From an uncultured Chloroflexia bacterium (GTDB lineage Bacteria; Chloroflexota; Limnocylindria; Limnocylindrales; CSP1-4), in the NCBI GenBank assembly GCA_963813335.1, contig CAWEYL010000003.1, forward strand, positions 448,001 to 512,000: a stretch of 64,000 bases of DNA. The letters are read 5' to 3'. This document shows, in pieces, positions 31,576-33,633 of this stretch (position 1 is the first letter of the stretch; each line of letters begins with the position of its first letter). The position numbers and the translations under genes are program-made. The notes beneath the pieces are model-generated. The model was not told the DNA's origin and did no database searches. It saw nothing but the letters and a program-made list of their open reading frames with translations.

Positions 31576-31611
31576 TCGCTCGGCGCTCGATATGCGACGA
31601 TCGCGACACAC

Positions 31612-33633
31612 ATGGCCGAGGAACTGAGCCCGAGCGAGGTCGCGCGACGTCTGGGGACGTCGACGCGGACCGTCCAGCGCTGGATCGAGAGCGGGAAGCT
31701 GCCCGCGCGACGCGTTGGCGGACGCTGGCGTGTCGCGAATGTCGCGTTTGACGCGTTCGAGCGCGATACGGCGGCCGGGCGACGGGCGCCGCGAGCCCGA
31801 TCCGGCGCCTCTTCGTGGCCAACCGCGGCGAGATCGCGGCACGGATCCAGCGGACGTGCGACCGCCTCGGGATCGTGGCCGTCCTGCCCGTCACCGACGG
31901 CCCGGATGCGCTCGACCTGCTCGACATCGATGCCGTGGTCGCGGCGGCCCGTTCGGCCGGCGCCGACGCGGTCCACCCCGGGTTCGGGTTCCTGGCCGAG
32001 AACGCCGACTTCGCCGACGCGGTCGCTGCCGCCGGGCTGACCTGGGTCGGACCGCCGCCGGCCGCGATCCGGGCGATGGGCGACAAGGCCGCCGCCCGAC
32101 GACTGGCGGCCTCGCTCGGCGTGCCGGTCCTCCCCGGCTACGACGACACGGACCAGTCGGACGCCGCGCTGACCGCGGCCGCGGCGCGGATCGGCTTCCC
32201 GCTGCTGGTCAAGCCGTCCGCCGGTGGCGGCGGGAAGGGCATGCGGACCGTTCGCGAGGCGACCGCCTTCCCCGATGCGCTCGGCTCCGCCCGACGCGAG
32301 GCGCACCGCGGCCTTCGGCGACGACCGGCTCATCCTCGAGCGCCTCGTCGAAGGCGGCCGGCACGTCGAGGTGCAGGTCCTCTTCGATGCGCATGGGAAC
32401 GGCGTCCACCTCGGCGAGCGCGACTGCTCGATCCAGCGCCGCCACCAGAAGGTGCTCGAGGAGGCGCCGTCGCCCGGCATCGATGCCGCCCTGCGCGCCC
32501 GGCTCGGCGAGGCGGCGCTGACCCTGGCGCGCGCCGTCGGCTACGTCAGCGCGGGCACGTGCGAGTTCCTCGTCGACGACCGCGGGGTGCCCGCCTTCCT
32601 CGAGATGAATACGCGGCTCCAGGTCGAGCATCCCGTGACGGAGCTGGTCACCGGCCGCGACCTCGTCGCGGACCAGCTCCGGATCGCGGCCGGGCGAGCC
32701 GCTGGGGTTCGCGCAGGACGACGTGACCGCCACGGGCCATGCCGTCGAGGTCCGCCTCTACGCCGAGGACGCCGAGGCCGGGTTCCTGCCGCAGACCGGC
32801 CGCGTCGAGCGGCTTCGATGGCCGACGGGCGACGGCATCCGCGTCGATGCCGGGATCGAGCTCGGGACCGAGGTCGGCGGCCGCTTCGACCCGATGCTGG
32901 CCAAGGTCATCGCCTGGGGCGCGACCCGCCCCGAGGCCCTCGACCGGCTGACGCGCCGGCCCTCGACGAGACCGTCGTCCTGGGGCTGGTCACGAACCTG
33001 CGGTTCCTGCGCTGGCTGGTCCGCCAGCCGGTCGTCCGCGACGGCGCCGCGCGGACCGACACGCTCGACCGGATCTGGCCGCCCGACGACTGGGCCGAGC
33101 GGGCCGCGATCCCGGACGACGCCTGGGCGGGCGCTGCGGCCGCGCTCGAGAGCACTGACGCCGGTGCCGACACCTGGCACGGCGCGTGGCGGCTCAACGG
33201 CCCGGGCACGATCCGGCTGGTCGCCGAGGGGGTCGAGCGCTCGGTGCCCCTCGGGGGCCCGCCGACGGAGTCGATCGGACTCGAGGCCGTCCGCGTCGGC
33301 GACCTCGTCCACGTCGACATCGCCGGTCGCAGCGTCGCCTTCGAGATCGCGCCGCCGCCCTCGCTCGAGCGGATCGGCCGGGCCCCGGTGGGTGGCGGGC
33401 CGCACGGCGGTCCCGTCGACCTGCTCGCCCCGATGCCGGGGGCCGTCCTCTCCGTCCACGTCGCGATCGGCGCCTCGGTGGAGGCGGGCGACCCGGTCGT
33501 CACCCTCGAGGCGATGAAGATGGAGCACGCGGTAGTCGCCACGGAACGCGGTCAGGTCACGGACATCCTCGTCGCCCCGGCCGACCAGGTGACCCGCGGT
33601 CAGCGGCTCGCCGTCATCGGACCGGCGCCGTAG
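31612..33633 (+). CDS. liuD: Biotin carboxylase + biotin carrier (MCC alpha subunit) with N-terminal excisionase-type HTH; about 4 frameshifts
   Basis: [107 protein letters not shown]. Biotinyl motif EAMKME. Confidence 0.88.

Follow-up and report, generated by a model that had tools for sequence, protein, structure and literature searches.

Does a biotin-dependent carboxylase subunit in an uncultured bacterium carry a DNA-binding domain, and if so, what would that domain bind? The question is raised by a locus in a 64,000-nt stretch of DNA (hereafter the window) from an uncultured Chloroflexia bacterium (Limnocylindria; Limnocylindrales; CSP1-4 in GTDB), positions 448,001 to 512,000 of contig CAWEYL010000003.1. 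There, an excisionase/BldC-type helix-turn-helix (HTH) domain directly precedes coding sequence resembling the alpha subunit of 3-methylcrotonyl-CoA carboxylase (MCC). An earlier note on this DNA, made from the letters alone, had proposed that the two form a single protein that binds DNA and couples leucine catabolism to its own transcription. Judged from its sequence, 31612–33633 of the window is one gene encoding an HTH domain, a flexible linker and an MCC-like alpha subunit that comprises biotin carboxylase and biotin carrier. The fusion itself is close to certain. Its best reading, to which we assign a probability of roughly 0.6, is an autoregulating carboxylase alpha subunit whose HTH domain would be bound to the start of its own gene.

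The gene opens with an ATG at 31612. The HTH_17, or excisionase-BldC-type, winged helix-turn-helix occupies 31612–31758 of the plus strand (residues 1–49, reading frame 1) and scores above cut-off against both Pfam PF12728 (E 8.9e-15, 55.1 bits, cut-off 27) and TIGR01764 ‘excise’ (49.5 bits, cut-off 28.8), in agreement with the earlier note. It is followed by a variable linker at 31759–31800 that contains the first of four frame breaks, from the HTH frame 1 to carboxylase frame 0; the tblastn pieces stop at 31758–31761 and resume at 31770–31800 in the other frame. The carboxylase continues on the same strand in tblastn pieces of different frame. The biotin carboxylase N-domain and the start of the ATP-grasp domain lie at 31797–32306 in frame 0 (PF00289 3.3e-26, PF02786 6.1e-14), and after a second break at about 32303–32308 the remainder of the ATP-grasp domain occupies 32308–32690 in frame 1 (PF02786 1e-46). 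A third break at a GGG run (about 32685–32696) leads to the C-domain at 32693–32956 in frame 2 (PF02785 3.9e-24), and a fourth at about 32956–32959 to the end of the C-domain, the middle linker region and the biotinyl (biotin carboxyl carrier protein, BCCP) domain with its AMKM motif at 32959–33633 in frame 1 (PF00364 3.3e-15). The stop codon is TAG at 33631–33633. All four carboxylase Pfam domains (N, ATP-grasp, C and biotinyl) are thus found across the pieces. The glycine-rich loop, a 14-residue stretch and the AMKM biotinylation motif (within E634-A635-M636-K637-M638) are invariant in a 67-sequence homologue alignment, A1, which argues that the enzyme part is under selection.

The carboxylase frame (positions equal to 0 mod 3) has no start of its own, as had been claimed: it contains a TGA at 31749–31751, and its first ATG, GTG or TTG is a GTG at 31815, within the first conserved strand of the biotin carboxylase. 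The TGA ends a spurious run-on of the frame of the upstream DUF5946 gene; it is not the end of a carboxylase gene. The same note had joined the two domains by one indel near 31780. Intact relatives do read through from one domain to the other, but the window copy carries four frame breaks, not one. In fused proteins the linker varies from 7 to 30 aa, has 12% identity among relatives and is modeled with a predicted local distance difference test score (pLDDT) of 50–65; this length variation and low model confidence would fit a freely tethered HTH domain.

The relatives establish that the two domains belong together. A search of longer proteins with the HTH alone as query gave 929 matches; among the best 120, 93 are at least 635 aa long and 113 have the carboxylase ANRGE strand in the same chain. 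Three of these database proteins (P0003–P0005, 671–674 aa) are uninterrupted and 98–100% identical over the HTH, and in 11 same-genus genomes a single open match runs from residue 1 to at least residue 672; several few-contig genomes of the genus, the window genome included, have the fused gene in pieces. Within the class Limnocylindria, a stop-free match reaching from query residue 6 or earlier to residue 169 or later was counted in about 129 of 301 genomes among the matches listed; the count was made by hand over the best 150 of 787 matches and includes six unpublished genomes (G274, G189, G122, G156, G319 and G131). These fused matches occur in several genera of one family, f1, and in nearly all of another, f4. 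A phylum-wide sample of Chloroflexota, searched at E ≤ 1e-32, matched in 20 of 301 genomes (4/15 in f1 and 15/15 in f4), with no match in 66 other families. Record titles of the fused loci name Chloroflexota and Candidatus Limnocylindria. When related loci were sought with carboxylase patterns, 73 of 79 were taken as ordinary alpha subunits of other phyla and served as negatives and outgroups. In 70 of these 73 the match begins at query residue 33 or beyond (in 67, at 48 or beyond); among the 73, L065 aligns over query residues 6–667 and L037 over 48–670.

HTH plus biotin carboxylase/BCCP is therefore a genuine, conserved single gene, seen fused in homologues of more than 100 genomes. The earlier note had held that its proposal would fall if homologues never showed the fusion, and uninterrupted fused proteins exist in relatives. 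The pairing that defines a trigger enzyme, a catalytic subunit and a predicted DNA-binding domain in one polypeptide, is accordingly encoded by single open reading frames (ORFs) in these genomes. Alignment A1 was assembled with the HTH as query, so the higher conservation of the HTH in it (86%, versus 77–78% for the catalytic domains) is not usable as evidence.

What kind of DNA-binding domain is this? Among solved structures, its profile best matches the Pukovnik excisionase Xis (4J2N; E 4.6e-9, 40% identity), followed by RacA (1.5e-6) and BldC (5e-5). The model of the domain (pLDDT 88.5) was matched by Foldseek first to the BldC-DNA complex, 6ama_B (template modeling score 0.78, root-mean-square deviation 1.2, 35% identity), and then to RacA, Xis and RdfS; the BldC/Xis-like character originally assigned to it thus holds. 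With BldC of Streptomyces (6AMA, 6AMK; PMC5859096), the domain shares a MerR-like winged HTH fold without dimerisation helix, the Arg-Trp pair of the recognition helix and a Gly-Gly-basic wing. According to the BldC study, protomers line up head-to-tail on direct repeats of a 9-bp unit, AATTXXXX(C), one to each unit; Lys26 and Arg30 contact bases, Trp31 lies on the backbone, and the basic wing (His46, Arg47, Arg48) enters the A/T-rich minor groove (PMC5859096). In our alignment R19, T20, R23, W24 and R40 match BldC K26, T27, R30, W31 and R48, and R38 and W39 stand at the positions of His46 and Arg47. R19, R23, W24, G36, G37, R38 and R40 are invariant in the 67 sequences and W39 is kept in at least 90%; T20 is replaced by Ser in several loci.

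A candidate site for such a domain lies directly before the start codon. The motif, which we call O1, spans 31592–31608 on the plus strand, reads ATGCGACGATCGCGACA in the window, consists of two head-to-tail 9-bp units and ends 3 nt before the ATG. Its consensus is (A/C)(T/C)GCGAC(A/G)ATCGCG(A/C/T)C(A/G), 14–17 nt, and each unit is an A/T-rich triplet followed by YGCGAC (about WWW-YGCGAC). The cores of the two units are the GCGAC words at 31594 and 31603 that the earlier note had pointed out as short direct repeats. They are far from a chance occurrence: with a position weight matrix (PWM) built from 25 related loci, the window left out, no site in the 2.54-Mb genome scores higher than O1 (28.7 bits), and the motif is kept in every fused locus examined, namely 25 of 25 related loci and 4 of 4 further fused loci (29/29, in two families). 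It ends 0–12 nt before the predicted start, with 28 nt in one locus. The motif abuts the ATG or GTG in family f4 and ends 2–4 nt before the start in most f1 loci; in L110 and L111, of a basal clade, the distance from motif to start, as set in our analysis, is 12 and 28 nt. Apart from O1, the spacer before the start codon is unconserved. The candidate operator possibly overlaps a −10-like element.

Of the five positions that the BldC pattern specifies, the unit AATCGCGAC agrees at four. Both the BldC site and the candidate site are 9 bp in head-to-tail order, A/T-rich bases followed by further bases in the former and an A/T triplet followed by a G/C core in the latter; the GC-rich core (GCGAC) differs from the BldC site. 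BldC is a separate protein of 68 residues that governs a large developmental regulon, whereas the domain studied here is the N-terminus of a subunit of about 670 residues and its motif was found only at its own gene. Nor does it have the stand-alone size of the BldC family (about 68 aa), being fused, in 93 of the best 120 homologues, to an enzyme of about 610 aa.

A second set of motif copies, O2, lies on the minus strand in the codons for the last HTH helix: two overlapping inverted copies at 31731–31747 and 31740–31756 (together 31731–31756), which rank second (23.8 bits) and fifth (20.5 bits) among the PWM matches of the genome. Of 25 loci, 22 have a minus-strand match at +119 to +138, within the part of the gene that encodes the HTH; besides O1 and O2, the 226 kb of related loci contain only three matches of at least 13 bits. 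Codons ending in A or T make up 26.5% of the O2 segment and 12.6% of the rest of the gene, the loci compared not being independent. The O2 string CGT-GTC-GCG is present in every locus of the main f1 clade (15 of the 16 f1-type loci shown; one has TGT), and the basal loci L110 and L111 differ at these codons. In f4 the same nucleotide string is read in another codon phase, GTG-TCG-CGT, so that RVA in one family corresponds to VSR in the other (6 of 7 loci). Conservation of the string at synonymous sites and in a second codon phase suggests that selection acts on the O2 nucleotides. Three basal-clade loci (L110, L111 and L123) have O1 without O2. In genus g9 an extra inverted copy of 18–24 bits lies in the intergenic region about 100–115 nt upstream of O1 (about −115 in L103 and L104; nt 295, minus strand, in L118), and the internal O2 of that genus is weak, at 13.6 bits.

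Motif and HTH also travel together. Beyond the 25 loci, we examined 12 further orthologous loci, comprising fused genes, unfused genes and one paralogue. All four with an HTH (two with long linkers, two frame-shifted in few-contig genomes) have the motif, none of the seven unfused orthologues has it at the start, and the remaining one of the 12 is a different paralogue. In a quick maximum-likelihood tree, with support from the Shimodaira-Hasegawa-like approximate likelihood ratio test (SH-aLRT) only, all Limnocylindria orthologues form one clade (SH-aLRT 100) in which unfused genes are nested among fused ones; the well-supported branches require that the state changed independently two or more times. 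With a single, basal origin of the fusion, HTH and motif would have been lost together at least twice. In the basal clade (genera g10, g17 and g18; L110, L111, L123, L125/L133) the carboxylase N-domain is full length, and both the wing, G-S-R/H-x-K-V, and the motif, ACGCGACAAACGCGACA, are variant forms; one member of this clade, G203, has neither HTH nor motif.

Together, these observations suggest the following mechanism. The HTH would bind the 9-bp direct repeats of O1 head-to-tail, in the manner of BldC, just before its own start codon, and would also bind the inverted set O2 some 120–140 nt downstream, inside its own coding region. We consider binding of the O1/O2 motif by the HTH rather probable. 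Bound there, the alpha subunit would control how much of itself and of the downstream 3-hydroxy-3-methylglutaryl-CoA (HMG-CoA) lyase is made, by repression or in some other way; the sign of this regulation is an inference. In f4 the sequence GACAAT falls at −12 to −7 relative to the start codon, where the −10 box would be if the mRNA were leaderless, and O1 would then be an operator that overlaps the promoter. HTH binding might be modulated by a metabolic or assembly signal (substrate, biotinylation or the beta subunit), but this is conjecture. We are equally cautious about a broader possibility, that the MCC-type holoenzyme acts as a multivalent BldC-type transcription factor. The HTH domains tethered to its alpha subunits would bind the direct repeats at the start of and within their own gene, and occupancy would be set by the free, assembled, biotinylated or substrate-bound state of alpha.

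Several results weigh against autoregulation through O1 and O2, or lower the value of the evidence for it. The genome scan gave 11 PWM matches of at least 18 bits, compared with about 1.7 expected from mononucleotide shuffles, but all eight non-locus matches examined (seven of them ≥18 bits) lie in coding regions with unbroken codon periodicity. By their position these are coding-sequence noise, and no regulon was found in the genome. Sequences like the 14-mer GCGACGATCGCGAC are common in the GC-rich genomes of relatives. A sigma-70 consensus promoter scan found none near the motif. The HTH scores well below cut-off against the curated BldC-subfamily model NF033787 (27.4 bits, cut-off 77), and the motif counts overstate independence, the loci being related. 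On a related point, the 14-mer GCGACRATCGCGMC, with one mismatch allowed, occurs 49–209 times per genome on both strands in G024, G095, G183, G046 and G049, versus 2–17 times for a reversed control. This abundance probably reflects codon and dipeptide bias in coding sequence of 72% G+C, and because one-mismatch 14-mers are so abundant, weak motif matches mean little. Since the start of the fused gene itself is the one place at which the motif was found, the data argue for autoregulation and not for a leucine regulon. The proposal of a DNA-binding MCC alpha subunit that controls its own gene is borne out as to the fusion, the gene cluster, the BldC/Xis-like HTH and the conserved 9-bp repeat, which occurs only with the HTH; DNA binding, a response to acyl-CoA or another metabolic signal, and 3-methylcrotonyl-CoA as the substrate are predicted features.

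Could the motif instead act in RNA? The O1 leader would then pair with O2 (+120 to +145) to form a stem around the start and the HTH region that controls translation or mRNA stability, and the HTH would have another role. In favor of such a stem, O2 has the reverse-complement sequence of O1 and is maintained at synonymous sites, and no Shine-Dalgarno sequence is visible between motif and start. Also adverse to a DNA operator, minimum-energy folds pair O1 with the O2 region in about half of 26 loci (−92 kcal/mol for the window fold) and RNAalifold predicts seven O1:O2 pairs. A covariation test found no compensatory change in any of 20 predicted pairs, a result that favors neither reading. Against a stem, each arm is built as a 9-bp direct repeat, a feature that RNA pairing does not call for; the three basal-clade loci mentioned above keep O1 without O2; and the extra inverted copy upstream in g9 shows that the position of a partner is not fixed. 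No Rfam family matches at the motif. We therefore regard an RNA stem as improbable, although it is the best placed of the alternatives.

A slightly less probable alternative is that the HTH is not a gene-specific regulator at all. It could be a nucleoid anchor, as in RacA, or a protein-protein module, as certain excisionase-like proteins are, with the motif being the inherited promoter or translation-start signal of an ancestral stand-alone HTH gene. RacA is indeed among the top sequence and fold matches, the absence of a regulon in the genome scan would be expected, and in f4 the motif abuts the start with its GACAAT where a leaderless −10 box would lie. A promoter is nevertheless unable to explain the inverted O2 at synonymous sites or why GC-rich flanks are conserved on both sides of AAT. 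Furthermore, the recognition-helix residues and most of the wing residues that contact bases in BldC are invariant, and the 9-bp repeats of the motif are arranged as in sites of the BldC family.

A separate question is whether the window copy still encodes an intact enzyme. We think it very likely that its four frame breaks are indel errors of a long-read metagenome assembly, because neighboring genes are broken in the same way. A MOSC-domain gene (28790–29558, plus strand) and a membrane-protein gene (29547–30153, minus strand) each have one frame switch, at 29356–29361 and at about 30009, relative to intact same-genus proteins, and the 3′ end of the DUF5946 gene (31068–31575, plus strand; PF19371 3.6e-26) is shifted by an extra base near 31547. 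Contigs of two public runs omit one base at 31547/31548, which places the DUF5946 stop at 31573–31575. Counting DUF5946, seven breaks fall in five genes over 4.8 kb; the carboxyltransferase, hydratase and HMG-CoA lyase genes each align in one frame with same-genus proteins. The window genome consists of 7 contigs and is 81% complete, and other database entries are similarly broken (P0001, P0002 and P0006).

At the junction itself, the earlier note had called for a check of reads at 31750–31800. A near-identical public contig of 314 nt, spanning 31584–31847 with four other differences, lacks bases 31780 and 31783, both of which adjoin short G/C runs, and without these two bases the HTH frame is in register with the carboxylase frame. 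The depth of this contig is 2.55. Two results limit the case for assembly error: the source strain, sought in public runs, reached a best share of sampled words of 0.16, and among the contigs of four runs no listed piece spans the three internal breaks. A true pseudogene, in which the four breaks are genuine mutations that have ended production of the enzyme in this strain, could draw on both, on the listing of no omitted or added base at the three internal breaks and on the density of four breaks in 2 kb versus three in about 6 kb of neighboring genes, but it is unlikely, given that neighbors of unrelated function are broken alike, the carboxylase pieces have no internal stops and are 54–90% identical to four intact same-genus genes, the junction is in frame in one near-identical short-read contig, and few-contig genomes of the genus are similarly fragmented while 11 of 24 other same-genus genomes have an uninterrupted full-length match.

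Three other observations concern frames at or near the locus. The protein P0089 had appeared to be a second fusion, of HTH_17 with PF10727/PF10728, and was rejected as a read-through chimera between a frameshifted upstream gene and the same carboxylase locus in another assembly. A CCA-adding-enzyme-like ORF (35952–37982, plus strand) has an apparent frame change near 37290, from its period-3 profile and the ORF list. The frame of the HMG-CoA lyase gene is open for about 260 nt past the end of its relatives (34790–35055), where it overlaps a minus-strand glyoxalase-like gene; a frameshift at its 3′ end was considered and rejected, as relatives align in one frame to 34788, and the extension may be due to a lost stop or to an indel near the gene end.

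The surroundings of the fused gene are those of a leucine-type catabolic cluster, as the earlier note had assumed. On the plus strand, Pfam and NCBIfam identify a carboxyltransferase, a candidate beta subunit, at 27051–28760 (PF01039 6.1e-144; a single frame, 87% identical to a same-genus gene), an enoyl-CoA hydratase, a candidate methylglutaconyl-CoA hydratase, at 30262–31071 (PF00378 3.8e-44) and an HMG-CoA lyase at 33865–34790 (NF004283, 367 bits, cut-off 246). The order hydratase, fused gene, HMG-CoA lyase is kept in all 26 related loci, and most of them also have the carboxyltransferase, a few kb upstream. Elsewhere hydratase and fused gene are about 40–900 nt apart; a DUF5946 gene between them is found, besides the window, in one same-genus locus alone (L098) among the 26. 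Between the fused gene and HMG-CoA lyase lies a 62-codon ORF (33645–33833, plus strand) with no Pfam match. It recurs in the same place with 48–81% identity in 17 of 19 f1-type loci and was not found in f4 loci. In size and position it may be compared with the small epsilon subunits of actinobacterial acyl-CoA carboxylases.

The enzyme part resembles known MCC-type subunits closely. It is collinear with the mycobacterial-type biotin carboxylase 9YX0 (chain 9yx0_D) from about residue 60–66 to the end (E 6.4e-147) and with the alpha subunit of Pseudomonas aeruginosa MCC (PDB 3U9S, chain 3u9s_A) over residues 60–667 (E 2.3e-137). Domain order, the glycine-rich loop, the 14-residue stretch and AMKM are common to all three, and the gene partners typical of MCC (carboxyltransferase, hydratase and HMG-CoA lyase) are also present at the fused locus. 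What the fused protein has in addition is the 50-residue HTH and the linker; no solved carboxylase covers its residues 1–59. An NCBIfam scan of the carboxylase reached no curated equivalog model. The putative substrate, 3-methylcrotonyl-CoA or a related acyl-CoA, is assigned from gene context and the best solved relatives.

The N-domain had been described as about 20 aa shorter than canonical, and the alignments agree: in the main clade it lacks one strand region, with 17 gap columns against 9yx0_D and 19 against 3u9s_A. The gap lies between the second strand and the ‘LD.DAVV’ helix, and the structure model has a confident loop there without the third strand. Because unfused relatives share this deletion and the basal clade is full length, it is unrelated to the HTH.

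Classical MerR proteins have a coiled-coil helix, an effector domain and a palindromic operator in a long promoter spacer; here the repeat is direct, the scan found no sigma-70 promoter, and no MerR-type coiled-coil or effector domain lies between HTH and carboxylase. RdfS (8DGL) is an excisionase-type protein that is reported to oligomerise on direct repeats (PMC11963761). Unlike the genes of excisionases and recombination directionality factors, the locus is a conserved catabolic cluster without integrase or mobile-element context. BirA, the biotin protein ligase and bio operon repressor, and PutA are enzyme-regulator fusions, or ‘trigger enzymes’. BirA binds a palindromic operator as a dimer. 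The fused protein differs from it in HTH class and in enzyme, its candidate repeats are direct and it has no known corepressor logic. BirA of group II is described in PMC4016012. Our search of full-text literature, supplements being outside its scope, returned no biotin-dependent carboxylase described as carrying a DNA-binding domain; where a Legionella MCC preprint speaks of a ‘helix-turn-helix’, it means a structural motif of the beta subunit. Sequences with the fusion are already present in automatic annotations, and its reading as an enzyme-regulator fusion with a BldC-type domain is new.

The finding bears on annotation as well as on regulation. Fused genes are inconsistently annotated, with database names ranging from ‘excisionase family DNA binding protein’ to ‘acetyl/propionyl-CoA carboxylase’ and ‘MCC alpha subunit’, so that they appear as an excisionase-type protein in some records and as a carboxylase subunit in others. 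In error-prone long-read metagenome-assembled genomes, fused loci fall apart into a number of spurious ORFs. BirA, PutA and other enzyme-regulator fusions are textbook cases, though few in number, of metabolism feeding back directly on transcription, and we know of none among the biotin-dependent carboxylases, which are structurally well studied. The fusion described here is conserved across two families of an abundant uncultured class of soil and freshwater bacteria and comes with a compact candidate operator. If our reading is correct, the BldC mode of DNA binding has been recruited onto an enzyme. Should the more tentative idea of the holoenzyme as a transcription factor also hold, it would be the first trigger enzyme among biotin-dependent carboxylases and a self-balancing device for subunit stoichiometry.

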